From an uncultured Candidatus Saccharibacteria bacterium (GTDB lineage Bacteria; Patescibacteriota; Saccharimonadia; CAZBQI01), in contig CAZBQI010000003.1 in NCBI GenBank assembly GCA_964494105.1, positions 21,737 to 85,736 on the forward strand: DNA of 64,000 nucleotides, written 5' to 3'. The position numbers were made by a program, and so were the translations under genes. The notes beneath the pieces were generated by a model. It ran no database searches. It was not told where the DNA came from and worked only from the letters and a program-made list of their open reading frames with translations. Position 1 is the first letter of the stretch, and each line of letters starts with the position of its first letter. Positions 5,911-40,081 of this stretch are shown here, piece after piece.

Positions 5911-5959
5911 CTACTGTACTGTATATAAGAGAAGGCATATAATCTGTGCAAGAGATGCT

Positions 5960-11687: not shown

Positions 11688-13128
11688 AACAGAAATTCGA
11701 AAAAAATACCAAGTAGATATAGGCATAGAGTGCCATGTACAACTGAAAACGAAATCTAAACTATTTTGTGGCTGTGGCAATGACGCGCGTGAGGCCGAGC
11801 CTAATACTCTGATATGCGAGATTTGCTTAGGTTTTCCCGGCACCCTACCTTATTTAAACGAACAGGCAGTTTGGTTGTCGCTACGGGCTGGCTTGGCCTT
11901 AAACGCTAAAATCCCCTCGATAACTAAGTTTGATCGTAAGAATTACTTTTACCCAGATCTACCGAAAGGTTACCAAATAACTCAGTTCGACCAGCCAATA
12001 GTTGGTCAGGGACATGTTGATGTTCCGCTGGGTGATGGTTCTTTTAAAGTAGGCATTACCAGGGCACATATGGAAGAGGATGCCGGCAAGCTGGTGCACC
12101 CACCAGCAAAAGACTACAGCCTAGTTGACTTAAATCGTGCTGGCACGCCACTGCTCGAGATTGTATCTGAGCCTGATATTCACTCACCGGCCGAGGCTAA
12201 GGCCTATGTTCAGGAATTATATAACCTGATGCGTTTTGCTGATGTTTCCGAAGTAAATTTATACTACGGCAACATGCGTTTCGACGTTAATACAAGTGTG
12301 CGGCTAAAGGATTCAAAAAAACTTGGCACCCGCACTGAAACCAAAAATATTAATTCTTTTCGTAATGTTGAGCGTGCAGCCGAGTTCGAGATTGAACGTC
12401 AAATAGTGCTACTAGAAAAAGGCGAGAAGATAACTCAAGAAACTCGCGGATGGGATGATGCTAAAGGCAAAACTACCTCTCAGCGGAGCAAAGAAGAAGC
12501 AGAAGACTATCGCTACTTTCCAGAGCCAGATTTACCACCTTTAAGAATTACAGGCGACATAATTGAAAAAGCAAAAAGTGCACAACTATTAAGCTTGCGA
12601 GCAATTAGGGACAAGCTTGCAAATACCGGCCTGAGACCGGATGAAGTTGAGGAATTTATTTCTATTGGACCTGGTTTTGTAAGCATTTATCTAGCTGATT
12701 TACTGCCAAAAGCCAGCCAGCGCGCAGCAAGTTTGATTGGGCGATCATGGATTGGAGCAACTGAAGAAGCGATAGATGAACTGATAAAACAGCTTCACTC
12801 GACTGCTAAAAAGCGCATAATTGATGAACTGGCTCTAGCAGCTGAAGCAACCATTAAGGGCGAACTGACAAATAATCAGTTTAGGAACTATTCATACGAA
12901 CAAATGCTAGGCAAAAAACCAACTATGCCAAAAGCCCAAATATCTGATACCAGTGAAGTCGAAAAAATTATCGAGTTGGTTATTGGCAGAAATCAAAAGG
13001 CTGTTACGGATTATCAAAATGGTAACGAAAACTCACTGAAATTCCTGATTGGTCAAGTAATGAAGGATTCACAAGGACAAGTTAATCCGAGTGTCGCTGC
13101 AGATTTGTTACACAAGAAACTAAAGTAG
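11677..13128 (+). CDS. gatB: Glu-tRNA(Gln) amidotransferase subunit B
   Basis: 483 aa. GatB N-terminal catalytic domain (GIECHVQL, CEICLGFPGTLP) and C-terminal YqeY-like tail. GTG/ATG start at 11677/11680. Confidence 0.95.
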   Translation: MMNKTEIRKKYQVDIGIECHVQLKTKSKLFCGCGNDAREAEPNTLICEICLGFPGTLPYLNEQAVWLSLRAGLALNAKIPSITKFDRKNYFYPDLPKGYQITQFDQPIVGQGHVDVPLGDGSFKVGITRAHMEEDAGKLVHPPAKDYSLVDLNRAGTPLLEIVSEPDIHSPAEAKAYVQELYNLMRFADVSEVNLYYGNMRFDVNTSVRLKDSKKLGTRTETKNINSFRNVERAAEFEIERQIVLLEKGEKITQETRGWDDAKGKTTSQRSKEEAEDYRYFPEPDLPPLRITGDIIEKAKSAQLLSLRAIRDKLANTGLRPDEVEEFISIGPGFVSIYLADLLPKASQRAASLIGRSWIGATEEAIDELIKQLHSTAKKRIIDELALAAEATIKGELTNNQFRNYSYEQMLGKKPTMPKAQISDTSEVEKIIELVIGRNQKAVTDYQNGNENSLKFLIGQVMKDSQGQVNPSVAADLLHKKLK

Positions 13129-13144
13129 TAGTATAGGGGTAGGC

Positions 13145-14032
13145 ATGTCACAAAAAATTACGAAAGCAATTATCCCGGCAGCTGGTTTTGGTACACGCTT
13201 TTTGCCACAAACCAAAGCTATGCCCAAGGAGATGCTCCCGGTGGTTGATAAACCGGTAATTCAGTACGTAGTAGAAGAGGCCGTCGCTTCTGGTATTAAA
13301 GATGTGGTGATTGTCACCGGTGCACTCAAGCGAGCGATTGAAGATCATTTTGATACGCCAAACGCAGATCTCATTCAAAATTTAAAAATGGGTGGAAAAG
13401 AAGAATTATTAAAGCAGACTCAGGCGATTTCAGATTTAGCAAATTTCATCTACATTCGTCAAAAAGGTATTTACGGCAACGGAACTCCCGTGTTGTCCGC
13501 AGAACCGGTAGTAGCTGGCGAGACTTTTGCGGTTCTTTGGGGCGATGAGTTTATTTACAGTAAGCCACCTCGTCTGGCGCAAATGATGAAGGTATATGAA
13601 AAATACGGCGGAGCGGTTATATCGAGTGTGCGGATTGAGCGCAAGGAAGATCTAAAGCGATATGGCATAGCCGAGATTGACCCCATAGAGGGCAATGTTT
13701 TCCGAATTAAGAAAATTGTGGAAAAACCGGAGCCGGAAGATGCTCCGTCAAATCTAGCTACTCATGGTGCATATATTTTGCCTCCGGAAATATTCGACAT
13801 CTTGCGTTCACAAAAGCCGGGCACGGGTGGTGAGCTTTACTTGCCCGAAGCGATTGATGCGCTAATAAAGACTGGCTATCCGGTGTACGGTTGTGAAATC
13901 GAAAATGGTCGCTACTTTGATACCGGCAACAAGGAAAGGTATTTGGAGACAATAGTCGAGATGGCTCTAGAAGATGCGAAGCTCGGACCGAAATTTCGTG
14001 AGTATTTAAATAACATATTGAAAAAGGTCTAA
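13145..14032 (+). CDS. galU: UTP--glucose-1-phosphate uridylyltransferase
   Basis: 295 aa. KAIIPAAGFGTRFLPQTKAMPKEMLPVVDKPVIQYVVEEA is the GalU N-terminal nucleotide-binding signature. Confidence 0.9.
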   Translation: MSQKITKAIIPAAGFGTRFLPQTKAMPKEMLPVVDKPVIQYVVEEAVASGIKDVVIVTGALKRAIEDHFDTPNADLIQNLKMGGKEELLKQTQAISDLANFIYIRQKGIYGNGTPVLSAEPVVAGETFAVLWGDEFIYSKPPRLAQMMKVYEKYGGAVISSVRIERKEDLKRYGIAEIDPIEGNVFRIKKIVEKPEPEDAPSNLATHGAYILPPEIFDILRSQKPGTGGELYLPEAIDALIKTGYPVYGCEIENGRYFDTGNKERYLETIVEMALEDAKLGPKFREYLNNILKKV

Positions 14033-14046
14033 CAAACTAGTATAAT
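14018..14046 (+). promoter_or_regulatory. sigma-70-type promoter TTGAAA-17-TATAAT, arranged for a leaderless transcript of the 14054 gene
   Basis: TTGAAA at 14018-14023, a 17-nt spacer, and TATAAT at 14041-14046. The ATG at 14054 is only 7 nt downstream of the -10, with no Shine-Dalgarno. Confidence 0.55.
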
Positions 14047-14053
14047 ATCACCT

Positions 14054-14302
14054 ATGGATGCTTTTGAAATATTAGTAATAATTTTAGCAACAGCACTAGC
14101 TGTTTTTATAGTTCTAGGTATTATTCTAACTTCAATTCTAATAAAAATTGCAAAACACGTTAAGGTTGTAACCGAAAAGGCCGAAGATGTTGCTAGTAAT
14201 GTGGCGGCCGCATCGCAGTACGTGAAGCCTGCTATGTTTTCAGCGGCTGCCTCCAACTTTGTGAAGAACATGATGAATAACAACAAAAAGAAAGGTGAAT
14301 AA
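14054..14302 (+). CDS. small membrane protein (DUF948-like N-terminal TM plus helical tail)
   Basis: 82 aa with one N-terminal TM helix and a charged C-terminus. Lies in a cluster with a YtxH-like gene. Confidence 0.4.
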   Translation: MDAFEILVIILATALAVFIVLGIILTSILIKIAKHVKVVTEKAEDVASNVAAASQYVKPAMFSAAASNFVKNMMNNNKKKGE

Positions 14303-14580
14303 TGGGTAAAAAATTTGTTAAAGGGACAATAATTGGCGCAATCGCCGGTGCAGTTGCAGGAGTTTTGTTTGCCCCAAAAAGTGGTAAAGAAACTCGCGAA
14401 GACATAAAGAAAGGCGCCAAAGCAACTAAGGAAAAAGCCGCAAAAAAGTACAGTGATGTCAAAAAAAGCACGGCCAAGGAAGTGACAAAGGCAAAGAAGG
14501 TTGGAAAAAAAGTTGTATCGGGTGCAGGTAAAGAGATAAACAAAGTAAAAAAGAACGTAAGCAAACGCGTAAACAGATAA
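14302..14580 (+). CDS. YtxH-family stress-associated protein
   Basis: 92 aa. GTIIGAIAGAVAGVLFAPKSGKETRED is the YtxH signature, followed by a Lys-rich tail. Confidence 0.6.
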   Translation: MGKKFVKGTIIGAIAGAVAGVLFAPKSGKETREDIKKGAKATKEKAAKKYSDVKKSTAKEVTKAKKVGKKVVSGAGKEINKVKKNVSKRVNR

Positions 14581-14583
14581 AAA

Positions 14584-14853
14584 ATGCCCACGAAATCACG
14601 TCCTAGTGATAAGGATTATCGAGCTTTAGGCAAGGCTGTTGAAAAAGCCTTAGTGACGGATTACTCTAGTTTTGTCGACCATAAGCGAAGCTTCTATTGG
14701 ATGAGCTTTTCGAGAGGACTACTTGCCGGTTTTGGTGGAGTTATCGGTGCTACGCTGGTGGTGGCGATTGTAATATGGCTATTGTCAATTTTTGGTAATC
14801 TACCGGTAATTGGAGATTTCTTTAACACAACCAAAGAAACCATCCAGCAGTAA
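14584..14853 (+). CDS. small membrane protein (hypothetical)
   Basis: 89 aa with a single TM helix near the C-terminus. Co-oriented with the YtxH-like genes. Confidence 0.4.
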   Translation: MPTKSRPSDKDYRALGKAVEKALVTDYSSFVDHKRSFYWMSFSRGLLAGFGGVIGATLVVAIVIWLLSIFGNLPVIGDFFNTTKETIQQ

Positions 14854-14854
14854 T

Positions 14855-15829
14855 ATGTCTATTGGATATCAAGAGATAGCAACAGCCATAATTCTTTTGG
14901 CGTTTGGTGGTATATTCATTGCCACCATTTGGCTTCAACTGTCCAAGTCATTTATAGCTGAAATAATCGGTAGCTTTCCGCTTCAATTATTCTTCGGCTT
15001 AACATCGGTTGCTACTGTACTTTTTATTTTCGCCCGCGCAATAGGGGTGAACGACAATATGTTTTGGTTAATAATGGCTTTTGCATTGCTACCGGTTTGT
15101 TTCATCGTGGTCAGAGTGCTAGCGTTTTCGTTTATTCATCCGAAGGAAACAAGAACTGAGCATAGCAATTTAAACATCGGCTCTTTCAATAAGCAGATTG
15201 GTACCGAAAACGCTCATTTAATTGTAGATTACGCTCAGCAAATTGGTTTGGATATTCTTGGAATTTCCGAAGTAAAAAGAATTGATTTTGCCAAACTGCT
15301 AACCGGCGAGTACCCGTATACGTTTAATAGCAATAAAAAGTATGGAATTGGCCAGGCTGAATTTTTGATTCTTAGTAAATATAAACTTGGAGAAGTTAAA
15401 AGCATTTCACTTGACAAATTTGGCAATGGAGTCAGAACAGAAGTTAATATTAAAGGCAAGCGAGTCGCGGTTTATTTAATTCACACAACTGCGCCGATAT
15501 CACCGGAGCTTTTTTTAAAGCGCAACGAAGGTTTTGCTAAGCTGACAGAAATACTGAAGGCAGAAAAGACGAAACGCATAATTGTGATGGGCGATCTAAA
15601 CATTACCCCCTATAGTTGGGAGTACCGTCATTCTCTAGGCAGCCTAAGGCACTTGATTTATAACGCTACAAAAGGATGGGGTATACATTTCACATGGGCA
15701 TTTTTTCAGCCACTTTCCACGCAACTGGATCACATATTCGCAAGTAAAAATATTCACACAAAACAATTCATAGTCGATAAAAATTTAAAGTCAGATCACA
15801 ATTTGATTTGGGCAAAACTAAAAGTCTAG
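14855..15829 (+). CDS. membrane-anchored endonuclease/exonuclease/phosphatase (EEP) family protein
   Basis: Three or four N-terminal TM helices. The C-terminal domain carries VMGDLNITPYSW and SDHNLIWAKLKV, typical of EEP enzymes. Start is moved to the ATG at 14855, just after the upstream stop, rather than the ORF-track 14810. Confidence 0.6.
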   Translation: MSIGYQEIATAIILLAFGGIFIATIWLQLSKSFIAEIIGSFPLQLFFGLTSVATVLFIFARAIGVNDNMFWLIMAFALLPVCFIVVRVLAFSFIHPKETRTEHSNLNIGSFNKQIGTENAHLIVDYAQQIGLDILGISEVKRIDFAKLLTGEYPYTFNSNKKYGIGQAEFLILSKYKLGEVKSISLDKFGNGVRTEVNIKGKRVAVYLIHTTAPISPELFLKRNEGFAKLTEILKAEKTKRIIVMGDLNITPYSWEYRHSLGSLRHLIYNATKGWGIHFTWAFFQPLSTQLDHIFASKNIHTKQFIVDKNLKSDHNLIWAKLKV

Positions 15830-22256: not shown

Positions 22257-24801
22257 AGTTTTCTAGGTACTCAATAAGTTTCGCATGCTCTCGCTGTTTA
22301 AATGCGGAGCGGTACTTGATGATATCAAGGCCGTTCCTAAGTCCCTGTGAATAAAGGGAGGTATCTTTGGTGGCAAAAAAATTACGTGCACGTCGTGCCA
22401 GGCGGTTATCACTATAACTTCCTAATATTGATTCAACCAAACCACTCTTCACAATTGTCCCGGCGTAGTTATCGTGAAACCATTGCCAGTTCTTTTCTAT
22501 ATATTCCCACATATAACTTTGAGTATGACGATTCCGACAAAGGTATATTACCCAAACATAAGCATCCTGCACGCGCACCTCTTTGCGCATGAATTCGAGC
22601 GCCTTTTTCCCAAGGCTTGGCTGATGAAAATTAGTCATAGCGCGAGCAATTCGGCGTTGCTCCTCACTATTATCAGTACCGCGATGCCACTTAATTAATT
22701 GGGCAAACTCTTTTCGACCACCATGTCTGGCTACAGTGCTTAGGGTGATGTCACGAATATCAGGGTTAATGTTCTTATTATTTAGGAGTTGTTTGTAGAT
22801 ATTTTGGATATTGGCCACTGCATCGCCATACTCGAATCTAGCGGCCAGATTAAGGACAGTTAATTGCAGTTTTATTTCGTTATGCGAAGCATTTTTGCCA
22901 ATCTTCCATACCAGTCTTGGGTAATGGTAAGAAATTAAGTGATGAATATAGGGCTGCAAAAGTTTATCAAATTTGTCACTACCGAAAGTTAAGTTAAGAG
23001 TACCGATACCAGAGCCAATTTGTTCCCACACCTCAGCAACATTTGATTTTCTTGCACTAATAAAGAGCTTCAAAAGCTCGGGCAAATGCGAGTAACCCGC
23101 AATTGCGAGATCAAGCTGGTCGCCTAAGAGCCCGATAGCTTCCAGTTCGTCTAGGCTGTTTTGTGAAATTTTCGCATCTAGCTTCAGTAGGTCTTCTCGA
23201 GGATAGGCGACTCGGTAAAAACCACTTTGACCAACGTTTAGATTCATAAAAGATTCAGGTTTGATTTTCAATTCGATTGTTTTCGATATAGTTTTTAGTT
23301 CTAGTTTATATGTTTTGGCATCGACTTGAATGTGCAGGGGGACTGGCCAAATAACATGTGGTAATTTTGATTTGTTATTATACCTAAAAATTGATTGATT
23401 AAACTCAATTTTACCTTGTTTTTGGCTATAGCTGATAATCGGATGACCCGGCTGATGTACCCATTTATGCATGAACTCTTTTACCGGTTTTTTTGCTACT
23501 TTTTCCAATTCCGACCATAAATCATTGCGAGTTGCATTTTTGTATGAGAAGCGAGTGAGGTATTGTTTTAGGCCGCGCCGGAAAGTCTCCTCACCCAAGT
23601 ATGATTCGAGCATTCGAATGGCACTAGAACCCTTGCGATAGGTAATTGCGTCAAACTTCTGAGCTATCTCACCCGGGTGATTAATCGTGGCATAGATTGC
23701 GTGGGTAGTTGAGTAGCTGTCGCTACGCAAAGCCCCAAACATATCTGAACTAACGTATTCCCGCCACATATGCCAATTTGGCCTGATATGATTGCTGCAT
23801 TTATACTCAATCCAGCTAGCAAAGCCCTCATTTAACCACAGATCATCCCACCACTGCATGGTTACTAAATTTCCGAACCACATATGAGCGAGCTCATGTG
23901 TAACTACAATCGTGTTGTAGATAAGCATGTCTTGAGACGTGGTTTTCGGATCTACCAAAAGCGAATCAGCTCGATATACAACACAGCCCCAGTTTTCCAT
24001 CGCTCCCACGCCCGGTTCCATATCGGGTATGGCAATCTGGTTTAAGTTTTCCAGGGGGTAGTTTATTCCAAAGTAATTCTCGTAGTATTCCAGAGCTTTC
24101 TTTGCCAGATACAGCGATTCGTCAACAAACTTAATTTGACTTGGAATTGCGTAGGTGCGAATAATAACGCCTCGTCTGGTTTTCGTCTGCTTGTACTTCC
24201 AGTCTCCCGCTGATATTGCCAGTAGGTAGCTAGACATTTTTGGTGTAGGTTTAAATACTGTGACTTTTTTAGAATCGTTTATTTCTTCAGATTCAGACAG
24301 AGTGTTGCTAATTACCACATCATCTTTAGGTGTCGTAATTGTTAGCTGAAAAACCGCTTTCGCAGCAGGCTCATCAATACAAGGCAAGAGCTGACGAGCA
24401 TAGGTGCTTTCAAGCTGACTGGTTAACAGGTATTTTTCTTTGCCCTTTTCAGTATAAGTGCTGCGGTATATTCCATGGGGGTGTTTATTAATCTTACCGC
24501 TGTATGATATTTTAAATTCGCACTTGCCAATACTAAGTTTTTTGGAAAAAACTATTTTCACTTCCTCTTTTTCTGTATCAAAGACAACTGACTTGCATGA
24601 GTTTGTAACTTTATTCTGAGTAACCTCGACTGAATTAAGCTGTAAATTCTTACTGTGCAAAGTAACCTGCTTTGTGATTTTTGGTAAGTGGCCACGTATT
24701 ACTAGCTCTGAAGTAAAAGACAGTTTATTAATATTCGGGGCCAAATTCAGGCTGTAGCGGACCGGTTGAAATTCGGGTAAAAGCTGACGGACTTTTGTCA
24801 T
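22234..24801 (-). CDS. pepN: aminopeptidase N (M1 family)
   Basis: HELAHMWFGNLVTMQWWDDLWLNEGFASW zinc-binding HExxH...E motif, and GAMEN (GVGAMENWG). Start is moved to the internal Met MTKVRQ at 24801; the upstream extension overlaps nusA. Confidence 0.9.
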   Translation of the reverse strand: MTKVRQLLPEFQPVRYSLNLAPNINKLSFTSELVIRGHLPKITKQVTLHSKNLQLNSVEVTQNKVTNSCKSVVFDTEKEEVKIVFSKKLSIGKCEFKISYSGKINKHPHGIYRSTYTEKGKEKYLLTSQLESTYARQLLPCIDEPAAKAVFQLTITTPKDDVVISNTLSESEEINDSKKVTVFKPTPKMSSYLLAISAGDWKYKQTKTRRGVIIRTYAIPSQIKFVDESLYLAKKALEYYENYFGINYPLENLNQIAIPDMEPGVGAMENWGCVVYRADSLLVDPKTTSQDMLIYNTIVVTHELAHMWFGNLVTMQWWDDLWLNEGFASWIEYKCSNHIRPNWHMWREYVSSDMFGALRSDSYSTTHAIYATINHPGEIAQKFDAITYRKGSSAIRMLESYLGEETFRRGLKQYLTRFSYKNATRNDLWSELEKVAKKPVKEFMHKWVHQPGHPIISYSQKQGKIEFNQSIFRYNNKSKLPHVIWPVPLHIQVDAKTYKLELKTISKTIELKIKPESFMNLNVGQSGFYRVAYPREDLLKLDAKISQNSLDELEAIGLLGDQLDLAIAGYSHLPELLKLFISARKSNVAEVWEQIGSGIGTLNLTFGSDKFDKLLQPYIHHLISYHYPRLVWKIGKNASHNEIKLQLTVLNLAARFEYGDAVANIQNIYKQLLNNKNINPDIRDITLSTVARHGGRKEFAQLIKWHRGTDNSEEQRRIARAMTNFHQPSLGKKALEFMRKEVRVQDAYVWVIYLCRNRHTQSYMWEYIEKNWQWFHDNYAGTIVKSGLVESILGSYSDNRLARRARNFFATKDTSLYSQGLRNGLDIIKYRSAFKQREHAKLIEYLENFSWKHSE

Positions 24802-24922
24802 GAAGACTATTGTAACATATGGGGTAGAATTGACATTTTGGCTATGGTTTGCTATCGTTATAGTCAACAAAGGTCGGCCAAGCAGGTCGGCTTTTTTAAT
24901 AGCTAGGAGTAAAGAAAAAGAT

Positions 24923-26209
24923 ATGGATGATCAGATTGACCCAAAATTATTTATCGCTACAATGCGGCAAATTGCCGAAGAAAAGAATTTGCCGTTCGAA
25001 GTTGTGCAAGATGCACTCGAGCAAGCTTTAGCTGCTGCTTATCGTAAAGACCACGGTACGCGTGACCAGCTGATACGAGTGGAATTAAATACGAAAAGTG
25101 GAGATTACAAAGTATTTGTTGTGCACAACGTAGTTGATGAGGTAGAGAACGAAGAAACCGACCTGTTACTAGATGAGGCCAAGATAATAGACAAAGACGC
25201 CAAGATTGGCGGGACTGTAGAACAAGAAGAAGAAGTTAAGCCATTTGGTCGCGTAGCAGCCCAAACTGCTAAACAAGTTATTTTACAAAAGCTACGTGAA
25301 GCTGAGCGGGATGTTGTACAAGAAGAGTTTAGCGGTAGAATTGGGAGTTTATTGAATGGCACAGTACAACGCATTGAGCCAAAAGTTGTGTATGTGGATC
25401 TTGGCAAAGCCCAAGGGATTTTACCGGGTAGCGAGCAAATTCAGGGTGAGCACTATAGCAACGGGCAACGCCTGAAAGTATTCTTGAGAGACGTAGAAAG
25501 CTCAGCTCGCGGACCGCAACTTGTGCTTTCGCGGGCAAATCCGGAGTTCGTTTCACTACTATTTGAGCGCGAAGTACCAGAAATGGAAAACAATGCTGTA
25601 GAGATTAAGGCGATTGCGCGTGAAGCAGGCGTTCGCACCAAAATTGCTGTGGCTTCAACCGTTCCTGGAGTTGACCCTGTTGGTACGTTCGTTGGTGGTC
25701 ATGGTACGCGGGTGCAGGCGGTAATGAATGAAATCGGCGAAGAAAAAATCGATATTGTAATGTATAGCGACGATATTATTACACTCATAACAAATGCGCT
25801 GTCTCCGACTAAAATTACTAAAGTTACACTTGACGAGAAAGAACACAAAGCCTCAGTAGAAGTGCCTGAGGACCAATTGTCGATCGCAATTGGTAAGAAT
25901 GGTCAAAATGTACGCCTGGCATCAAAACTTACCGGTTGGCAGATAGACATTGTTGGCGCCAGTGGCGACAGACGAGAAGCACAAGATGTACCAGAAGCAC
26001 CTACAAAAGCCGTGGCACCTAAGCGACCGGCTAGCAAGTCTGACCTAGAAGCAGCTTTAATTGGAGCTGTTGATGAGCACGGTGAAGAGCCAGCTGTTGA
26101 CGAAGCTCCAAAAACATCAGATGAGCAGTCAGAAAAACCTGTAGCTAGCGGTGACACGGAAGCTGCTAAAGATAGTTCCGAAGGCGTGACAGAAGCGAAG
26201 AAATCATAG
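24923..26209 (+). CDS. nusA: transcription termination/antitermination factor NusA
   Basis: N-terminal domain, S1 and tandem KH domains (GVDPVGTFVGGHGTRVQAVMNEIGEEKIDIV, SIAIGKNGQNVRLASKLTGWQIDI), plus an acidic C-terminal tail. Start is moved to the ATG at 24923 with AGGAGT RBS. Confidence 0.9.
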   Translation: MDDQIDPKLFIATMRQIAEEKNLPFEVVQDALEQALAAAYRKDHGTRDQLIRVELNTKSGDYKVFVVHNVVDEVENEETDLLLDEAKIIDKDAKIGGTVEQEEEVKPFGRVAAQTAKQVILQKLREAERDVVQEEFSGRIGSLLNGTVQRIEPKVVYVDLGKAQGILPGSEQIQGEHYSNGQRLKVFLRDVESSARGPQLVLSRANPEFVSLLFEREVPEMENNAVEIKAIAREAGVRTKIAVASTVPGVDPVGTFVGGHGTRVQAVMNEIGEEKIDIVMYSDDIITLITNALSPTKITKVTLDEKEHKASVEVPEDQLSIAIGKNGQNVRLASKLTGWQIDIVGASGDRREAQDVPEAPTKAVAPKRPASKSDLEAALIGAVDEHGEEPAVDEAPKTSDEQSEKPVASGDTEAAKDSSEGVTEAKKS

Positions 26210-26255: not shown

Positions 26256-26290
26256 TTGACACCAGTATACTAGCATGCTAGTATACTAAA
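26256..26290 (+). promoter_or_regulatory. promoter plus perfect 24-bp palindromic operator (AGTATACTAGCATGCTAGTATACT) for the TrpR-like regulator
   Basis: TTGACA at 26256-26261. The palindrome at 26264-26287 is a perfect reverse complement of itself, contains CTAG half-sites, and covers the spacer and -10 (TAGTAT 26279-26284). The ATG follows at 26293. Confidence 0.55.
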
Positions 26291-26292
26291 TT

Positions 26293-26595
26293 ATGTTATC
26301 AAAACATGATCAAGAACTAGTTACATTATTTACAAAGACAACAGATTACAATCTGATGGAGAACTTATTGTCTGGTATTTTAACGCCCGGCGAACGCACA
26401 GAAATAGCGCAGCGGCTGCAGATTATAAAGTTGCTACTTGATGGCGTGCCACAAGCAAAAATCGCTAAAGACCTCGGAGTTGGAATTGCGACCGTAACAC
26501 GGGGTTCACGTGCAGTAAAAAGCGGCTATTTTAAGGTGTTACAACAAAAAAGTGATCAAAAAATAACGGAGCACTCGCTTCGTTGGCGCTCATAG
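26293..26595 (+). CDS. TrpR-like (YerC/YecD family) DNA-binding protein
   Basis: 100 aa. TPGERTEIAQRLQIIKLLLDGVPQAKIAKDLGVGIATVTRGSR matches the Trp-repressor-like HTH of YerC/YecD proteins. Confidence 0.7.
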   Translation: MLSKHDQELVTLFTKTTDYNLMENLLSGILTPGERTEIAQRLQIIKLLLDGVPQAKIAKDLGVGIATVTRGSRAVKSGYFKVLQQKSDQKITEHSLRWRS

Positions 26596-26654
26596 CTAAA
26601 ACATTTATTTAATAACAATAATTTTACCAAGGGTGGGGTAGAGGAGTTTTAGAT

Positions 26655-29384
26655 ATGAGTGGAATAGAAAGTGCGCACGCAGAGTCCGCAACATCAGCTG
26701 GCATTAATAGAGCTTATGCCTCGGAGTTTGTTTTAACCCTGAGTGATGCCAAATGCCAAGATACAGAATTGGCGGGTGGAAAAGCGGCAAACTTATCGAT
26801 ATTAGTGCGAAACGGAGTGGATGTGCCCGAAGGTTTCGTGCTTACGACCGAAGCATACGATGTGATCACAAGGGATCCTTATTATTATGATCTGGGAATA
26901 GCGTACGATATGTTGTCAGGCACTAGCTATGTCTCAAACGGCAATACAGAAGGCAAAGAGCCAAGTGGACAGATGCTTGATATATTGGAAGAAGCATCCA
27001 GAGCTGCGAATTACTTTGAGGATGCAATAGCATTGCGAAGCTCAGCAACAGTTGAGGACGGATCAAGAACAAGTCTTGCAGGTGTATTTGATACGCATTA
27101 TGTCAATAGAGAATCTGCTAGTACACCTGGCTTGGTAATGAATACTATTCTAGGGATATATAAACAAGCTCAATCAGAAACAACTCGGCGGGCATTGATT
27201 GAGCACGGAATTAATCCTGATGATTTAAAAATGGCAATAATTATTCAACGCTTGGTAAAGGCTGAATACTCTGGTGTTATGTATACAAGAGCGAGTGGAG
27301 ATGGTCGCTTGGTTCAGTACACTCAAGGAATGGGGGATCGTTTGGTAGACGGGGTTACTACAGGTACTTCGATCATCATAGAACCCGAAACTGGTGTAAT
27401 CACTCGTTCATTTGATTTTGAATCACGTGCCATGCCACGTGAAAACGTGAAGGAGTTAGAAAGGGTTGCCTCAGAAGTCGAGTCAGTTTTTGGCGGCACA
27501 CCTCAGGATGTTGAATTCGCTATCGATGAGCGACGCAGTGTAAAAGTTGTTCAGTCCAGACCAATGACACGAGAAGTAGAAGGTATCTCTCAGGAAATTA
27601 CGACACTCGAAGCGGTTGATATGATCAAGGCTCGAGCTGAGGCAGTTATGCAACATGAGATGTCTAGGCTGAAGACTCAAAATTCTATTCTATTTCAAGC
27701 TAACTTTTCCGAATTACTGCCAAACCCGTCACCAATGGACGTTGGGGTGTTCCAGTACATTTTCCCTGGCAGGGACGAGGTAGATGGAGCAATTCAGATT
27801 GGGCGTCGTGACATGGGGTACCCATTAAAAGATGGTTCCACTGGTTACTTGCATTATATTGGTGGCAGAGCTTACGAGAGTTTAGCTGGCGACGCACTAA
27901 CCTATTTTGGAGGATTTCCTGAGAGTGAAGCGGAGTATGTAGAAACGCTCGTAGCTGAGTATTTGAGAAAAGTACAAGAAGACCCAGATCTTGCTTCCTA
28001 CCCGGAGATGGGATTATACCTGCAGGATCCTACTCTAGAAGATTTGCAAACAAGATACGGTGATCGCGCACCAAAACTCTTTGATGTCTATCATCAACTC
28101 AGACAAAAGCTCAAGTACTCGGCAGAAGTGTTTAAGGATAATTTTGGGCAGACTGGAAATATTGAAAACGAACAGTTTATCGAATCGTTGTCAGATCAGG
28201 AACTTGACGAGCTTGACGATGATGCACTGCTATATTCCACAGTCCTGATATTGGAGCATTTGAGACAAAAATCATGTGTAGACTTTGTTCATGCAGCTAG
28301 ACTTGGCTTCTACTATACCCAAAGACTTCAATCATTTCTCGCCGATACACTTGGTTTAGCACCTGATGAAATGCAAGAGACACTAGCAACTTTAGGCCAA
28401 GGCCTCGAAGGCAGTAGTGTAACAGAAACTAACATAGCAATTAGTGAAGCAGATGATCTGGATACTGCTCTAGCGATAGCAAGACAAAGGATATCTCATT
28501 ATCCCGCGATTGGAGAAATGTTAGAAATTAGGCATCCTAGACTTAGTGAGGACCCCGATGCATTGCGGGCATATGTTGAGGAGATACGAATTAATAGAGA
28601 CTTTAGGTTTAAACATGAGGCGCAGACGAAAGAGCGCAGAGTAGCGGAGCAATCATTAACTGAGATGCTACCTCTAGAACTACAAGCTGAATTTAGAGAA
28701 GTAGCAAAAAACGCGCAAACTTACATGGCTTTGCGAGAAACCATAAAGGACCAATTTGGTCGTGAGTACGGTCTACTAAGGGAGAGATTAGTTGAAATCG
28801 AATCACGCTTGGGTATTGTGCCAGAGGGGATTTTTTATCTTTATCCGCGAGAACTACCCGAAGTTATGCTCGATCCCAGTTCGTACTATCATATAATCGA
28901 AGCGCGCAAAGCCGAATTTACAGCTTTTCAGAAGGTGAGTATGCCTACGGTGATCACTCCGAGTAGCATTAGTTCTATAGAAGTTGGCGTAAGTAATAAT
29001 AGAAAGTTAGTCGAAGAAAAAGGCAGGTTTCTTTCGCACGGCACTGCTGTTCAGGGGGTAGTTATTAAGTTAGATGACTATGGTGAACTCGAGGATGACC
29101 CACAACACACAAGGGCTGCTTTACATCAGAGGATTCAAGAACTGAAAGGCAAAGGAGTAAAAGTAATTCTAGCTGCGCGTCAGGTTAATCTTACCGATGA
29201 CCCACTTATCAATCTCGCAGATGGTTTAATATTGCAGAAAGCGGGCATTGTATCTCATGGGGCTCAAAGGGCTCGTGAACTTGGGATAGGCGCACTATCT
29301 GGTATAGATATATCTATAATAGATTCTGGTATGAAGATAATATTTGATCCGCATAACAGAATGGTAAGGAGGATTGATGAGTAG
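26655..29384 (+). CDS. PEP-utilising-enzyme-family phosphotransferase with rifampin-phosphotransferase-like architecture (N-terminal ATP-grasp/PPDK_N domain, C-terminal mobile His domain)
   Basis: 909 aa. N-terminus has GGKAANL and RSSATVEDG. The extreme C-terminus has GIVSHGAQRARELGIGALSGI (swivelling phospho-His motif). No C-terminal PEP-binding TIM barrel, so not a bona fide PpsA. Confidence 0.65.
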   Translation: MSGIESAHAESATSAGINRAYASEFVLTLSDAKCQDTELAGGKAANLSILVRNGVDVPEGFVLTTEAYDVITRDPYYYDLGIAYDMLSGTSYVSNGNTEGKEPSGQMLDILEEASRAANYFEDAIALRSSATVEDGSRTSLAGVFDTHYVNRESASTPGLVMNTILGIYKQAQSETTRRALIEHGINPDDLKMAIIIQRLVKAEYSGVMYTRASGDGRLVQYTQGMGDRLVDGVTTGTSIIIEPETGVITRSFDFESRAMPRENVKELERVASEVESVFGGTPQDVEFAIDERRSVKVVQSRPMTREVEGISQEITTLEAVDMIKARAEAVMQHEMSRLKTQNSILFQANFSELLPNPSPMDVGVFQYIFPGRDEVDGAIQIGRRDMGYPLKDGSTGYLHYIGGRAYESLAGDALTYFGGFPESEAEYVETLVAEYLRKVQEDPDLASYPEMGLYLQDPTLEDLQTRYGDRAPKLFDVYHQLRQKLKYSAEVFKDNFGQTGNIENEQFIESLSDQELDELDDDALLYSTVLILEHLRQKSCVDFVHAARLGFYYTQRLQSFLADTLGLAPDEMQETLATLGQGLEGSSVTETNIAISEADDLDTALAIARQRISHYPAIGEMLEIRHPRLSEDPDALRAYVEEIRINRDFRFKHEAQTKERRVAEQSLTEMLPLELQAEFREVAKNAQTYMALRETIKDQFGREYGLLRERLVEIESRLGIVPEGIFYLYPRELPEVMLDPSSYYHIIEARKAEFTAFQKVSMPTVITPSSISSIEVGVSNNRKLVEEKGRFLSHGTAVQGVVIKLDDYGELEDDPQHTRAALHQRIQELKGKGVKVILAARQVNLTDDPLINLADGLILQKAGIVSHGAQRARELGIGALSGIDISIIDSGMKIIFDPHNRMVRRIDE

Positions 29385-29988
29385 AGTGACTTTTCTGCGT
29401 CATGGTATTCTTCAGAATCCATATAACGACTATACTCAACTAACATTAATGCAGCTAAATGAATTAGCCGAGCAGAAAACACAGCCACATATCAACCAGG
29501 CGCAATCAACGCATCTTATCAGCAAAAAAATTGAAAGTCTCAAAAGTATAGAAGCTATTTACTGTGCCACTAATCGTCGTTCGGCTGAGACAGCTGCCTT
29601 ACTAGCACAGAGCTTAAATAAGCCATTTCCAATAGAAGCAACAGCATTATTAAATGAAATTGTTTTTAGCCCAGCTAAGATGATAGCTGAAGCTCAGTAT
29701 AAATTAGCAGGCATGGATGCAATTAGGGAGAGTTTATTTATGTCTATAGTCTCAGGGGACGGCAAAGCTGAAAGCCTGAGCGATATTTACAATCGGGTCA
29801 ATAGAATAGATGGTTTAATTAAAAAATCTAGATACGGGGATGTGCTTGTTGTAACGCATGGATTCTTAATGCGCTTTTTACAGGTACATTATTTACAAGA
29901 ACAAGTAAATTTTATGCATATAAAAGCAGAAGATATCGCACAACAGAAAAATTACTATTATTTAGATGGCTTTACTACAAAAATATAG
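29377..29988 (+). CDS. histidine phosphatase superfamily protein (phosphoglycerate-mutase-like)
   Basis: FLRHG (RHG catalytic His), RRSAETA and VVTHG motifs. AAGGAGG RBS. Overlaps the upstream gene by 8 nt. Confidence 0.7.
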   Translation: MSRVTFLRHGILQNPYNDYTQLTLMQLNELAEQKTQPHINQAQSTHLISKKIESLKSIEAIYCATNRRSAETAALLAQSLNKPFPIEATALLNEIVFSPAKMIAEAQYKLAGMDAIRESLFMSIVSGDGKAESLSDIYNRVNRIDGLIKKSRYGDVLVVTHGFLMRFLQVHYLQEQVNFMHIKAEDIAQQKNYYYLDGFTTKI

Positions 29989-29990
29989 CA

Positions 29991-30421
29991 CTAAACTTTG
30001 CGGTGGTGTCGGCGTCTAAGTTCGGCAACTTTTAGCTGCGCTAAGTGGCGTTCAATTAAGCCGGTGGCATCGGCCAGGGCTACTTGGTCTTTGGCGTTCT
30101 TCTGCATGTCTTTGGCGCGCTCTAGAGCTTCTTTGACTTCCATTTCGTTAATATCATCTGCTGCTTCAGCGGCATTAGCTAATAGGCGAACCCTCGTGCC
30201 TGAGATTTCAATTACGCCACCATCACTGGCAAAATGATCTAGCTTAGAGTCCGGATCGTTCTGTGACCTGCGCACACTCACAACGCCGGGGACAGCGATG
30301 GAAATCAGCGGTATGTGATGAGGCATGATTGTAATGATTCCAGATGGAGTAGGGAGTGAAATAGAATAGCACTCTTCGGTAAACTTTACGCCTTCTAGTG
30401 TTACAAGCTCAAATGTCAGCA

Positions 30422-37139: not shown

Positions 37140-38309
37140 ATGGCTCGTGTTAGCATTTCTGAATACCGAGCAAAAAAGCTGCTACTTGGTGATGATTACG
37201 TGGGTTGGCAGTTAAGCGTCAAGAATGCTCGAGCCATAATTTCCAAGCTTCCACGAACAGCAACATATGTAGTTAAAGTTGATCAGGGTGTAAAGAAACG
37301 TTTCAAGCAGGGATTGCTTTCTGTAAATGTTGCCAAAGATCAGTTAGAAAGACATATTAAAAACTATGCCGCCAAAGGGTACGGACAGTTTTTAATAGAG
37401 ACGTACATACCGCACTTGCAAACGGCCGAACGCTACCTTTCGCTCGAGCGAGTGCGCCAAGGCATCAAGATATTATATTCGCTTAAAGGTGGCGTTGATA
37501 TCGAAGACAGTAGCGATTCCGTTTTGCAGGCTACTTATAGTGGTAAGCAAGTGATTCTGGAGGATATTGAGCGCGCATTAGAGGTAGAAACCGGATTTTT
37601 AGCGGGCATTGTCGATAAAATGAACGCACTACACATTAGTTTTATAGAAATTAACCCTTTGCTTGTTGTTGAGAGAAAGCCAATTCTGCTAGATTGTGCA
37701 ACTATGGTAGATTCTACCGCCAGTTGGTTTGTTGGTGGCGAATGGAGCGAGGATGATCTAATAGAGAGCGGCGGTGGTAACCCGCAGGAATTAGCTGTTC
37801 GCGAATTAAGCAAAAACTCTCCTTCGTCACTAACATTACGAGTGCTCAATCCGGATGGTTCGTTGTTTATGTTGCTCTCTGGTGGAGGCGCTAGTATCGC
37901 TTTGGCAGATGAAGCCTTTAACCTTGGCTTTGGAGCGCAAATTGCTAATTACGGGGAATATAGCGGCAACCCAACGCTAGAGGAAACTTATCTGTATACC
38001 AAACAAATTTTAAGCTTGTTACTAGAATCGGAGACTAAAAAGAAAGCTCTGGTAATCGCCGGCGGTGTAGCCAACTTTACCGACGTTTCTGCTACCTTTA
38101 AGGGGATAATTCAAGCGCTGGATGAGTGTAAAACCAAGTTAAAGAATCAGAAAATTAAAGTCTACGTGCGCCGGGGCGGGCCTAATGAGGCCAAGGGCTT
38201 GGCGATGATGAAAGATTTCTTGGAACACGCCGGCATTTTAGGCTCGGTAGCAGGCTCCGAGGAGCTCTTGGTAACACCGGTACGCGCGGCAGTAGCGAGT
38301 ATTAAATGA
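37140..38309 (+). CDS. aclB: ATP-citrate lyase beta-type subunit (ATP-grasp; AclB-like)
   Basis: 389 aa. FIEINPL, LNPDGSLFMLLSGGGASI, ANYGEYSGNPT, TFKGI and VYVRRGGPN align closely with motifs of the ATP-grasp half of ATP-citrate lyase (LEINPL, LNPKGRIW..GGGASV, ANYGEYSGAPSE, TFKGI, VRRGGPN). Confidence 0.7.
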   Translation: MARVSISEYRAKKLLLGDDYVGWQLSVKNARAIISKLPRTATYVVKVDQGVKKRFKQGLLSVNVAKDQLERHIKNYAAKGYGQFLIETYIPHLQTAERYLSLERVRQGIKILYSLKGGVDIEDSSDSVLQATYSGKQVILEDIERALEVETGFLAGIVDKMNALHISFIEINPLLVVERKPILLDCATMVDSTASWFVGGEWSEDDLIESGGGNPQELAVRELSKNSPSSLTLRVLNPDGSLFMLLSGGGASIALADEAFNLGFGAQIANYGEYSGNPTLEETYLYTKQILSLLLESETKKKALVIAGGVANFTDVSATFKGIIQALDECKTKLKNQKIKVYVRRGGPNEAKGLAMMKDFLEHAGILGSVAGSEELLVTPVRAAVASIK

Positions 38310-40081
38310 TAAACGTATCAGCCCTTCGCAAAGCCAAAAAAGGTATAGTAACGCTAGGGAGCCATCCTGGCATTATTCAGTCTATTTTAGACTTCGATTA
38401 TCTTAGCGGTGAAAGCGATCCTAGTGTGGTCGCTATTATTACCGCTAGTGCCAAAACGCAAAAATACTTTTGGGGGAATAGGGAGGTGCTGATTCCGTGC
38501 TATCCGCGGCTCGCGAGTATTCCCCGCGATAAAAAAGCCAATGTGAATCTGGCTATAAATTTAAATTCAGCCCGCCGAGTTTACGATTCAACTGTAGAAT
38601 TGTTTGAATTGTTTCCCGAAGCCTTTGGAGTACATATTTTTGCCGAGGATGTACCTGAACTGGCAGCTATCGAACTTTTTAATGCTTACCAAAAGAAGCA
38701 TTTTATTGTGGGCCCTTCAGGGGTTGGATTGGTTATAGCAAATTCCCTCAAGCTTGGTGCTGTCGGTGGGACTGACTATCAGCAGTTGCTAAAGTCTCAC
38801 TTATTTACCGAGGGCAATACGGCAGTTCTTTCGGCCTCGGGTGGCATGATAAACGAAATCATCAGGATGGTGGCAAATGGAGGCAAGCGAGTCTCGTTTG
38901 CTCTTACCCTTGGCGGGGATCGCTTTCCAGTTACGGCCCCCCTAGAAGCATTTCTGGCAGCCGAAGCCGACACGCAGACTGATCAGATTGTGTACTACGG
39001 CGAACTAGGTGGGTACGACGAATATGACCTAGTTGAGCTAATAAAAGCTAAGGAAGTTACCAAGCCGGTTGTCGCCTACATCGCGGGTAGTATTGCCGAG
39101 CAGTTCGACACGCCAGTGCAATTTGGCCATGCTAAAGCGCTCGCTGGCAACAAAAGCGAATCTGCTAGTGCCAAGCGGGCAGCGCTCGCGGAAGTTGGCG
39201 TGCAAGTTGCAGATTCACTCGAAAGCTTCCATACTTTAATAAGTAAGATGAAGAAACCAAACAATCCTGATCCAGAGGTAGATGCGGGTGAACTTAGCGG
39301 TCGTCGCAAAAGTTTGTTTAGTACTCAAATTGGGCGCGAGTCCGAGACTGGCTATGAATTTAGTGGCAAGTCGCTTGAAGCTTGGGAGCGCCGGGGCGAC
39401 TTTATAGCTATGGTGCTGGCTGGACTGCTTGGACGCCCGGCAAAATCGAAGCTACTAGAGGAATTCACCAAGACTGTGTTTATTTTGGGTCTAGACCATG
39501 GCCCGCAGGTTTCAGGAGCGCTAAATACCATTATTACTGCCCGCGCTGGCAAAGATATGGTGTCCTCATTAAGCGCTGGGTTATTGGCAATTGGCCCCCG
39601 CTTTGGTGGCGCTGGTAACGAGGCAGCGGGCAATTGGTTTGAAGGTGCAACATCGGGGGTAGAAGCCAGTGAGTTTGTAGAGAACTTAGCCAAGCAGAAG
39701 AAGCTAATTCTTGGCATTGGTCACAAGAAATATCGCCTTGGCTACCCAGACCCACGCGTTGTACGCTTGCTTGCCTTTGCCAAGCAATTAAAAGCTCATC
39801 GCTACCTGGATTTTGCCCAGGCAGTAGAGGATATTACAACCTCTAAAAAGGGTAATCTGATCTTAAATTTTGACGGAGCATTTGCAGCGATTCTTTTAGA
39901 TATTTTAGAGCTAGAAGAAAAGATGAGTGAAGATGAGATAAAAGAACTTATAGATGCCGAGTTTTTCAACGCATTCTTTGTAATTCCACGTTCAGTGGGC
40001 TTTGTTAGCCACTTCCTCGACCAAAAACGGCTTGATGAAGGCCTTTTCCGACTGCCTGACGAGTTATTGTACGCAAATTAA
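38306..40081 (+). CDS. aclA: ATP-citrate lyase alpha-type subunit (CoA-binding, phospho-His and citrate-synthase-like domains; AclA-like)
   Basis: 591 aa. QFGHAKA matches the catalytic phospho-His loop QFGHAG of ACL. GIGHKKYRLGYPDPRV and ITTSKKGNLILNFDGA match GIGHRVKS..PD.RV and ITTSKKPNLILNVDG. ATGA overlap with aclB. Confidence 0.75.
   Translation: MINVSALRKAKKGIVTLGSHPGIIQSILDFDYLSGESDPSVVAIITASAKTQKYFWGNREVLIPCYPRLASIPRDKKANVNLAINLNSARRVYDSTVELFELFPEAFGVHIFAEDVPELAAIELFNAYQKKHFIVGPSGVGLVIANSLKLGAVGGTDYQQLLKSHLFTEGNTAVLSASGGMINEIIRMVANGGKRVSFALTLGGDRFPVTAPLEAFLAAEADTQTDQIVYYGELGGYDEYDLVELIKAKEVTKPVVAYIAGSIAEQFDTPVQFGHAKALAGNKSESASAKRAALAEVGVQVADSLESFHTLISKMKKPNNPDPEVDAGELSGRRKSLFSTQIGRESETGYEFSGKSLEAWERRGDFIAMVLAGLLGRPAKSKLLEEFTKTVFILGLDHGPQVSGALNTIITARAGKDMVSSLSAGLLAIGPRFGGAGNEAAGNWFEGATSGVEASEFVENLAKQKKLILGIGHKKYRLGYPDPRVVRLLAFAKQLKAHRYLDFAQAVEDITTSKKGNLILNFDGAFAAILLDILELEEKMSEDEIKELIDAEFFNAFFVIPRSVGFVSHFLDQKRLDEGLFRLPDELLYAN

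Follow-up and report, generated by a model that had tools for sequence, protein, structure and literature searches.

A TrpR-linked dikinase–phosphatase operon of mainly Patescibacteria, with a probable function in tryptophan starvation

The closest described relatives of the system reported here belong to the superfamily of rifampin phosphotransferase (RPH), dikinases with a swivelling phosphohistidine domain. Glutamine kinase Cj1418 is a characterised member, and synthases of Desulfatiglans anilini reportedly activate aniline to phenylphosphoamidate. The glucan water dikinase of plant starch metabolism, another swivel-His dikinase, takes part in an obligatory cycle with dedicated phosphatases, SEX4 and LSF2, and is to our knowledge the only well-known dikinase to do so. 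Other characterised members of the superfamily phosphorylate an alcohol (rifampin) or phenols (PMC4844700, PMC12167813). The phenolic dikinase HpeHI has substrates that undergo phosphorylation, then carboxylation and finally dephosphorylation, and a proposed role is scavenging through metabolic trapping (PMC12167813). In this work, we analysed a stretch of 64,000 nucleotides from an uncultured Candidatus Saccharibacteria bacterium (contig CAZBQI010000003.1, positions 21,737 to 85,736 of the forward strand; hereafter 'the window', whose numbering is used for the operon). It contains three co-directional open reading frames (ORFs) on the + strand, spanning 26293-29988, which code for a TrpR-family repressor, a 909-residue dikinase and a histidine phosphatase. 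We propose that this operon probably has an undescribed tryptophan-starvation function, in which a new acceptor specificity within a known superfamily would be joined to regulatory and compositional features that form a coherent whole. No description of the module, its clade, its phosphatase partner, its tryptophan wiring or TrpR in Saccharibacteria turned up in literature searches.

The dikinase compares best with the Listeria enzyme RPH-Lm (PDB 5HV1/5FBS; NF041857). Both have an ATP-grasp domain, an acceptor domain and a C-terminal swivel domain in that order, with the catalytic His in the last of these and an Arg-Glu-x-x-Lys signature in block 9, and they presumably share the conversion of ATP to AMP, inorganic phosphate (Pi) and phosphorylated acceptor. 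Pfam detects PPDK_N (PF01326) at the N terminus (E 6.5e-35, 121 bits) and the PEP-utilizers mobile domain (PF00391) at residues 836-898 of 909 (27.8 bits against a cutoff of 23.1); these two flank a homologous, helical acceptor domain, and the phosphoenolpyruvate (PEP)/pyruvate TIM barrel PF02896 was not found by Pfam in the protein. In an alignment of 36 homologues, His868 of the phospho-His motif VSHGAQRARELGIG is invariant, as are R694, E695 and K698; the invariant residues of the ATP-grasp domain are G41, K43, R128-S-S-A131, E134, D135, D285, E287, Q300 and R302. The counterparts of R694, E695 and K698 in RPH-Lm, Arg666, Glu667 and Lys670, are essential for the second half-reaction and are kept even in remote clades of undefined specificity (PMC4844700). 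The best sequence matches in the PDB are Listeria RPH structures, which align at the ATP-grasp and swivel domains and pair His868 with His825 of RPH-Lm. An AlphaFold model computed with the 36 homologues (pLDDT 88, pTM 0.86) retrieves RPH-Lm as the top Foldseek match (5hv1, E 3e-29, about 1000 alignment columns including gaps, 17% identity), and structures of PEP synthase and PPDK align with it over the N-terminal part only.

The identity of the central 465 residues required a closer comparison. A preliminary description of this DNA, made from the sequence alone, had found in them no resemblance to the rifampin-binding domain. This holds for searches with the single sequence, which gave no Pfam match and weak NCBIfam matches limited to the last third; an RPH model run against the central domain alone matched residues 319-463 only (E 8.5e-4), and the first two-thirds are 15% identical to RPH-like proteins. 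It does not hold at the level of profiles and folds. Aligned by hhalign, the family profile and a profile of 16 RPH-like proteins match with a probability of 100% (E 5e-66, 759 columns), the Arg-Glu-x-x-Lys signature is kept, and PF27448, the Pfam Rph_4th region, is recorded for many homologues. Judging from the profile-profile comparison together with the fold match, the central domain and the RPH acceptor domain are homologous but have diverged. PRK05849 (NF004508), a full-length match followed as a lead for this domain, vanished when the central domain was searched alone and is thus ascribed to the ATP-grasp domain.

With its catalytic residues in place, the 909-aa protein belongs to the RPH superfamily as an intact enzyme, distinct from both RPH itself and PpsA. 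Clade members carry the public names 'pyruvate,water dikinase', 'PEP synthase', 'rifampicin phosphotransferase' and 'phosphohistidine swiveling domain-containing protein'. On model scores and domain content, the first three of these names do not apply. PEP-synthase models give 94-110 bits against cutoffs of 600-1060 (TIGR01418 94 against 739.75), TIGR01828 gives 39.5 against 843, and the swivel domain lies at the C terminus instead of in the middle of the protein, so the RPH-type layout of the preliminary description stands. A bona fide (clade A) RPH can be set aside as well, with NF041857 at 100 bits against 999, NF000283 at 45.6 against 1700, and 17% identity against a clade limit of >42%. 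The system further departs from RPH-Lm in its dedicated phosphatase, trp operator, linkage to tryptophanyl-tRNA synthetase (TrpRS), tryptophan-free composition and mainly patescibacterial hosts. The phenolic dikinases (phenylphosphate synthase PpsAB, CreHI and HpeHI; PDB 9GOJ) share its superfamily and the phospho-His mechanism, and HpeI is among the Foldseek matches of the kinase model (E 2.8e-11). However, they are two-component enzymes encoded in catabolic clusters with carboxylases, whereas the present enzyme is a single chain without a carboxylase, under TrpR-type control in hosts of minimal metabolism. Glucan water dikinase differs by unrelated CBM45 substrate-binding modules, a polymer acceptor and another domain order.

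Searching 5.8 billion proteins yielded about 77 full-length relatives (37-43% identity, 497-707 bits), after which the scores fall to 102 bits. With the central domain as sole query, an exhaustive HMMER search across 1.84 billion cluster representatives returned 172 proteins at E <= 1e-3, 46 of them at E <= 1e-30. These searches delineate the kinase as part of a small, discrete clade of the superfamily. Taxa given in the record titles are Saccharibacteria, Amesbacteria, Peribacteria, Wirthbacteria, Daviesbacteria and 'Patescibacteria group'; members also occur in two cultured isolates, Paenibacillus ferrarius and Tenacibaculum amylolyticum, and several third-party assembled-genome records bear the label Gammaproteobacteria, which could not be verified. 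We gathered 61 related loci (L numbers below), called their ORFs and labelled them with hidden Markov models (HMMs) from recurrent neighbours. In the scan of contigs, a single-protein query gave no match and an alignment query worked. Removal of near-duplicates left 49 distinct kinase loci, 44 of which have at least 500 nt downstream of the kinase gene. The operon is conserved across mainly bacteria of the candidate phyla radiation (CPR), or Patescibacteria.

The link of this clade with tryptophan begins at the promoter. A palindrome covers the spacer and -10 element upstream of the repressor gene (Table 1), with a TACTAG half-site and a 4-bp spacer that match the consensus trp operator of Escherichia coli, GTACTAGTTAACTAGTAC. 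A scan had called this same segment, 26264-26287, a terminator, an assignment we reject in favour of the operator. In 538 kb of distinct related loci, CTAG-N4-CTAG occurs 14 times; 13 of these sites fit the longer TACTAG-N4-CTAGTA, and all but one of the 13 lie directly upstream of a trpR-like gene or of the kinase operon, the site in the window included. The same motif precedes the operon in L010, L012, L022, L023, L026, L029, L032, L035 and L042, and in L012 it occupies the divergent intergenic region between a membrane-protein gene and the kinase gene. Elsewhere in the window, only weak sites with two mismatches were found, at chance level. Two loci have tandem operator pairs offset by 8 bp (L010 4544-4567, L029 7504-7527), the offset at which TrpR dimers bind in tandem in E. 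coli. Rfam matched a single tRNA in the window, and no T-box or riboswitch regulator.

The repressor itself matches Trp_repressor (PF01371) with 70.3 bits against a cutoff of 27. When aligned to the E. coli TrpR structures 1jhg and 1tro, it conserves T44, R54 and G78-I79-A80-T81-x-T83-R84-G85-S86, and R69 is not conserved; T44, R54, I79, A80, T81, T83, R84 and G85 are the residues of the corepressor pocket and of the head that reads the DNA. Fourteen distinct loci have a trpR-like gene. The likeness to E. coli TrpR thus extends from pocket and DNA-contacting residues to the half-site, the spacing, the 8-bp tandem sites and the position of the repressor gene behind its own operator. Unlike E. 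coli TrpR, this repressor would control a dikinase–phosphatase pair rather than trp biosynthetic genes. Its ATG lies 9 nt past the -10 hexamer and lacks a Shine-Dalgarno sequence, so the transcript probably has little or no leader; strong Shine-Dalgarno sequences precede both the kinase gene and the phosphatase gene.

TrpRS is encoded within a few genes of the operon in 12 distinct loci (TIGR00233, 243-293 bits against a cutoff of 176.75). In seven distinct loci, a multi-pass membrane protein of about 340 residues recurs beside TrpRS and the kinase operon (for example L012 6516-7535, L011 6455-7528, L024, L047 and L039). It matched no Pfam or NCBIfam family and is a candidate transporter of tryptophan or a precursor. 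In L011, two TrpRS genes (5197-6450 and 10967-11968) flank the operon; the 334-aa copy has no tryptophan residue and the 418-aa copy has five, and the former may be a starvation-proof auxiliary synthetase.

A further line of evidence is composition. Proteins needed when an amino acid is scarce are commonly depleted of that amino acid. The kinase of the window has no tryptophan in 909 residues (0%), and 49 of the 77 proteins of its family have none at all, the total being 42 in 65,871 residues (0.06%). Among its partners, the type-A phosphatases (the type found in the window, see below) contain 0.07%, the low-molecular-weight protein tyrosine phosphatases (LMW-PTP) that take their place in some loci 0.12% (1/808), the repressors 0.19% (2/1,046) and the adjacent TrpRS 0.41%. 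The corresponding values are 1.49% for RPH-like relatives retrieved by the same search, 0.62% for the sister tier, 1.05% for unrelated neighbouring genes and 2.0% for AsnB-like genes. Taken together, the operator, the repressor, the TrpRS neighbours and the tryptophan-poor composition indicate that the operon is most likely repressed by tryptophan and built for expression during tryptophan starvation. Other tryptophan-poor proteins are encoded near the operon, namely YbaK-like tRNA_edit proteins (L001, L036, L037, L055; 0/568 residues), AstE/AspA-type deacylases (L002, L036, L039, L047; 2/941) and Asp/Glu-type racemases (L001/L016, L021; 0/469), hinting at a wider tryptophan-starvation gene set.

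The second enzyme of the operon matches His_Phos_1 (PF00300; E 2.7e-12, 47.2 bits against 21.7) and has RHG at residues 9-11 and THG at 161-163, numbered from the TTG start. In the type-A phosphatases, as we call this group, 23 of 25 sequences have R9 and H10, and all 25 have R69, E95 and H162, which makes up the catalytic set of branch 1 of the histidine phosphatase superfamily; an insert of about 25 residues follows RHG in place of the usual xTxxN. An ordinary cofactor-dependent phosphoglycerate mutase (GpmA) or CobC was rejected, since no GpmA model matched and the best NCBIfam match, the CobC model TIGR03162, gave 43.9 bits against 162.9; an ordinary mutase would have refuted the preliminary description. 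A sequence search of the PDB with the phosphatase returned no match at E <= 0.01, and a word-indexed search for homologues found one relative only. The kinase stop codon, TAG at 29382-29384, lies beyond the phosphatase ATG at 29377, giving an 8-nt overlap, and the Shine-Dalgarno sequence of the phosphatase is inside the kinase gene; phosphatase translation is thus coupled to the kinase gene through the overlap and the internal ribosome-binding sequence. These ORFs, their overlap, the swivel and RHG/THG motifs and the TrpR-like gene upstream are all as the preliminary description gave them.

The pairing is general. Among the 44 loci with sufficient downstream sequence, the first gene after the kinase codes for a type-A His_Phos_1 protein in 24, an LMW-PTP (Pfam LMWPc) in four, an AsnB-like amidotransferase in ten and something else in six (TrpR in one, a split kinase gene in one, unassigned in four). 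Where the AsnB-like gene comes first, it is followed by a canonical His_Phos_1 gene or, in two Peribacteria-type loci (L017, L019), by a HAD phosphatase/hydrolase gene; it separates the phosphatase from the kinase, and the phosphatase gene is sometimes on the other strand. In 24 of 25 loci, the phosphatase start lies -17 to +4 nt from the kinase stop. Inherited synteny does not explain this adjacency, since identity among the kinases is only about 40% and their other flanking genes vary by locus. The phosphatase nearly always accompanies the kinase; this is a real dedicated pair, usually translationally coupled, and the proposal of such a pair under a TrpR-type regulator is borne out in dozens of loci with differing flanks. 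The presence of three unrelated families (His_Phos_1, LMW-PTP and HAD) in one slot argues that selection acts on phosphatase activity toward the kinase product or a derivative of it.

In a neighbour-joining tree, the AsnB-linked kinases group together as a single derived clade that arises from within the TrpR-linked kinases. Some of the AsnB-linked kinases are longer, at 1170-1174 aa (L004/L018, gene 5001-8513 in L004; P0063, P0049), and the N-terminal extension of these variants (about 310-350 aa; 348 aa tested) gave no Pfam match.

What might the acceptor be? Within the TrpR-linked loci, the acceptor domain is 52% identical as against 45% for the ATP-grasp domain, and between TrpR-linked and AsnB-linked kinases the values are 49% and 44%; only three positions are specific to one class or the other. 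Given this conservation, the few class-specific positions and the nested position of the AsnB clade, the family appears to act on one conserved molecule rather than on variable xenobiotics. The domain has a net charge of about -22, and a nucleic acid is an unlikely acceptor for so acidic a surrounding. Its putative pocket has the conserved residues N350, E353, D362, Y389, Y407, R537, H615, R661, R694, E695, K698 and R751. Some loci have neighbours from aromatic pathways: TrpD, a decarboxylase and two chorismate mutases in L002, PrnB in L006, and a chorismatase-like/RidA protein in L028, a Paenibacillus cluster. Our best guess is a small metabolite of aromatic or amino-acid type.

It is tempting to assemble these elements into a cycle. 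When tryptophan is plentiful, the tryptophan-loaded repressor would shut the operon off, and its exhaustion would lead to derepression; with no tryptophan in either enzyme, both could still be translated during starvation. If the chemistry follows that of the homologous RPH, phenylphosphate synthase and HpeHI, His868 would receive the beta,gamma-pyrophosphoryl group from ATP through the ATP-grasp domain, with loss of the gamma-phosphate as Pi and release of AMP. The swivel domain would then carry the beta-phosphate to the central domain, where R694, E695 and K698 would position it for transfer to the acceptor, and the coupled phosphatase would strip the phosphate from the product or a derivative. 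Such a cycle would serve the acquisition or sparing of tryptophan, for instance by trapping or activating a scavenged precursor, and would have an analogue in the phosphorylate, modify, dephosphorylate logic of the phenolic dikinase pathways. We consider the chances evenly balanced that this is a TrpR-repressed operon for tryptophan starvation whose enzymes phosphorylate and then dephosphorylate one conserved acceptor, probably a small metabolite of aromatic or amino-acid type. A more specific version, to which we hold only tentatively, is that tryptophan-auxotrophic CPR bacteria possess a TrpR-controlled route of tryptophan acquisition, with the dikinase and phosphatase capturing, activating or converting an exogenous aromatic or indolic precursor.

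Several points weigh against this proposal. If kinase and phosphatase work on one and the same molecule, their cycle is futile unless that molecule is modified, transported or consumed in between, and no third enzyme for such a step is encoded nearby in the window or in many other loci. No trp operator is detectable in the AsnB-linked subclade, which also lacks TrpRS; the tie to tryptophan may therefore be unrelated to acceptor chemistry. The chorismate mutase, TrpD, PrnB and chorismatase neighbours each occur in one or two loci only. The repressor scores below the cutoff of the TrpR model TIGR01321 (60 bits against 67.25), and tryptophan is its presumed corepressor. Finally, the absence of tryptophan from 1112 residues in the window alone has a probability of about 3e-4 against a local background of 0.74%, and the window contains other tryptophan-free ORFs (3949-5910, +, 653 aa; 62179-63456, +, 425 aa); the argument from depletion hence rests on the whole family.

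The first alternative is a reversible switch of protein phosphorylation, in which the phospho-His dikinase would modify a conserved protein, for example on Tyr, His or Arg, as a signal of tryptophan starvation and the phosphatase would reset it. Kinase/phosphatase pairs within one operon are typical of signalling, the His_Phos_1 and LMW-PTP families include the protein phosphatases SixA, Sts-1 and YwlE, and a highly conserved acceptor domain would suit a conserved protein partner. The module is also self-contained in many loci, and VadK, an enzyme derived from PPDK, is a histidine kinase with a regulatory function (PMC13400623). Nevertheless, we find this switch unlikely: every characterised enzyme with an RPH-type acceptor domain acts on small molecules, the order kinase, AsnB-like amidotransferase, phosphatase in one subclade looks like a metabolic pathway, the HAD hydrolases that replace the phosphatase in some loci belong to enzymes that usually act on small molecules, and no candidate target is encoded nearby.

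Could the enzyme instead condense two molecules? PigC and RedH have the same three-domain architecture, and these prodiginine enzymes, like HapC, use phosphoryl activation for pyrrole coupling. By analogy, a carbonyl or hydroxyl group would be activated for attack by an indole- or pyrrole-type nucleophile to give tryptophan or a precursor, with the phosphatase clearing off-pathway phospho-intermediates. Enzymes that make an amino acid are typically depleted of it, as Alves and Savageau reportedly described in 2005, which fits the composition of the operon, and PrnB, TrpD and chorismate mutase are neighbours in some loci. However, the NCBIfam scores (86 bits for PigC, 72 bits for RedH) are far under the cutoffs of 1300 and 1350, and we reject membership of the prodiginine ligases, whose acceptor domain and genomic context differ from those described here. 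No enzyme for a second substrate and no pyridoxal phosphate (PLP) enzyme is consistently linked, and the near-universal phosphatase has no known counterpart in prodiginine clusters. The condensing reaction is thus improbable in our judgement.

We give equally little credence to the idea that the phosphatase gates the kinase by removing phosphate from His868 (or from Ser867), in the way that SixA acts on phosphotransferase system (PTS)/HPt proteins and PSRP/PDRP on PEP synthase/PPDK. It would avoid a futile cycle on the product, the tight one-to-one translational coupling suits a protein partner, and His_Phos_1 includes phosphohistidine phosphatases. Yet three mechanistically different families interchange in the slot, which is easier to reconcile with a shared small phosphomonoester than with a shared protein interface, and in the AsnB-linked loci another gene intervenes or the phosphatase is encoded on the opposite strand.

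Inactivation of an antibiotic or xenobiotic, which the preliminary description had raised, is very improbable, whether the target is a rifamycin or a TrpRS inhibitor such as an indolmycin-like compound. RPH does supply the closest solved structure, and the two TrpRS copies of L011 recall the auxiliary TrpRS genes of the resistance type. But the scores and identities to RPH given above (100 against 999 bits for NF041857, 17% over RPH-Lm, 15% in the first two-thirds of the acceptor domain) are low, and the coupled phosphatase would undo the modification. An acceptor domain as conserved as the ATP-grasp domain, under strong purifying selection over very diverse hosts, misfits a xenobiotic, as does the tryptophan wiring. 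In addition, rifampin resistance is known not to be conferred by RPHs of distant clades (PMC4844700). A gluconeogenic role as an ordinary PEP synthase (pyruvate, water dikinase), suggested by the name 'pyruvate,water dikinase' that JGI gives to homologues and by the match of the N-terminal domain to PEP synthase models, has virtually no chance, being refuted by the missing PF02896, the C-terminal swivel domain, the TIGR01418 score and the N-terminal-only structural alignment. The reversible small-molecule phosphorylation module of the preliminary description remains the fairest summary of the pair, with the correction that its context is tryptophan starvation.

Table 1. Features of the operon, in window coordinates
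Feature	Position	Strand	Evidence or remark
Sigma-70-type promoter, TTGACA-17 nt-TAGTAT, extended -10 TG	26256..26284	+	10/12 matches
Candidate trp operator, perfect 24-bp palindrome AGTATACTAGCATGCTAGTATACT, core TACTAG-N4-CTAGTA (26268-26283; N4 = CATG)	26264..26287	.	Overlaps promoter spacer and -10
TrpR-family repressor gene, 100 aa	26293..26595	+	Pfam Trp_repressor E 1.5e-19; TIGR01321 60 bits vs cutoff 67.25
RPH-superfamily dikinase gene, 909 aa, zero Trp	26655..29384	+	ORF call, Pfam, NCBIfam, PDB, fold, profile comparison
ATP-grasp (PPDK_N) nucleotide-binding domain, residues ~25-305	26727..27569	+	Pfam; Foldseek vs 5hv6 E 2.4e-11
Predicted central acceptor-binding domain, residues 306-770 (465 aa), family-specific	27570..28964	+	Mostly helical, acidic
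R694-E695-T-I-K698, equivalent of the second phosphotransfer site	28734..28748	+	Matches RPH-Lm Arg666-Glu667-x-x-Lys670
C-terminal swivelling phosphohistidine domain, residues ~785-906	29007..29372	+	His868 codon 29256-29258
Shine-Dalgarno sequence of the phosphatase, AAGGAGG, within the 3' end of the kinase gene	29365..29371	+	6 nt upstream of ATG 29377
His_Phos_1 phosphatase gene ('type A'), 203 aa (ATG 29377) or 204 aa (TTG start 29374), zero Trp	29377..29988	+	

In the window, the operon is flanked by nusA (24800-26209) on one side and a convergent atp operon, starting at 29991, on the other. The longest nusA ORF (ATG 24800) overlaps a divergent M1 aminopeptidase ORF (TTG 24870) by about 70 nt, and the true start codon of one or both genes is probably further inside. 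Two adjoining genes at 37140-40081 (+) resemble both subunits of ATP-citrate lyase, one with Citrate_bind and the ATP-citrate synthase ATP-grasp, the other with CoA-ligase and the C-terminal domain of Citrate_synt, a pair that is unexpected if the genome is of the minimal CPR type.

Other observations concern relatives of the kinase. Sister-clade dikinases of about 30% identity, in Methylomirabilis oxygeniifera and Rhodoblastus acidophilus (L062, L063), are encoded at the end of a conserved gene block made up of four Peptidase_U32 members plus an NMT1/phosphonate-binding-like gene, possibly another uncharacterised dikinase system acting on aromatics. In Tenacibaculum amylolyticum (L025), no phosphatase is present; a Cys/Met PLP enzyme adjoins the kinase, a YqcI/YcgG gene lies upstream, and the region downstream (12017-14876), with an AAA_21/DUF4435 ATPase gene and a CAP12/Pycsar-type TIR effector gene, is probably a defence island. 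PADLOC matched none of the three operon proteins of the window, which gives them no anti-phage defence assignment.

The operon bears on how these genomes are read. The names 'pyruvate, water dikinase' and 'PEP synthase' wrongly credit minimal genomes with a gluconeogenic step, and 'rifampicin phosphotransferase' wrongly inflates counts of the resistome. The pairing of a dikinase with a phosphatase extends the logic of phosphorylating and then dephosphorylating beyond lignin-aromatic catabolism and starch. Only rarely do regulation, gene neighbourhood and amino-acid composition converge, as they do here on tryptophan starvation, and the organisms are mostly uncultured ones that rely on hosts for their amino acids. 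A repressor with its operator and a pair of soluble enzymes provide a handle on tryptophan limitation in these bacteria. If they do form a route of tryptophan acquisition, they would add a new enzymatic branch to tryptophan metabolism, run by proteins purged of their own tryptophan.

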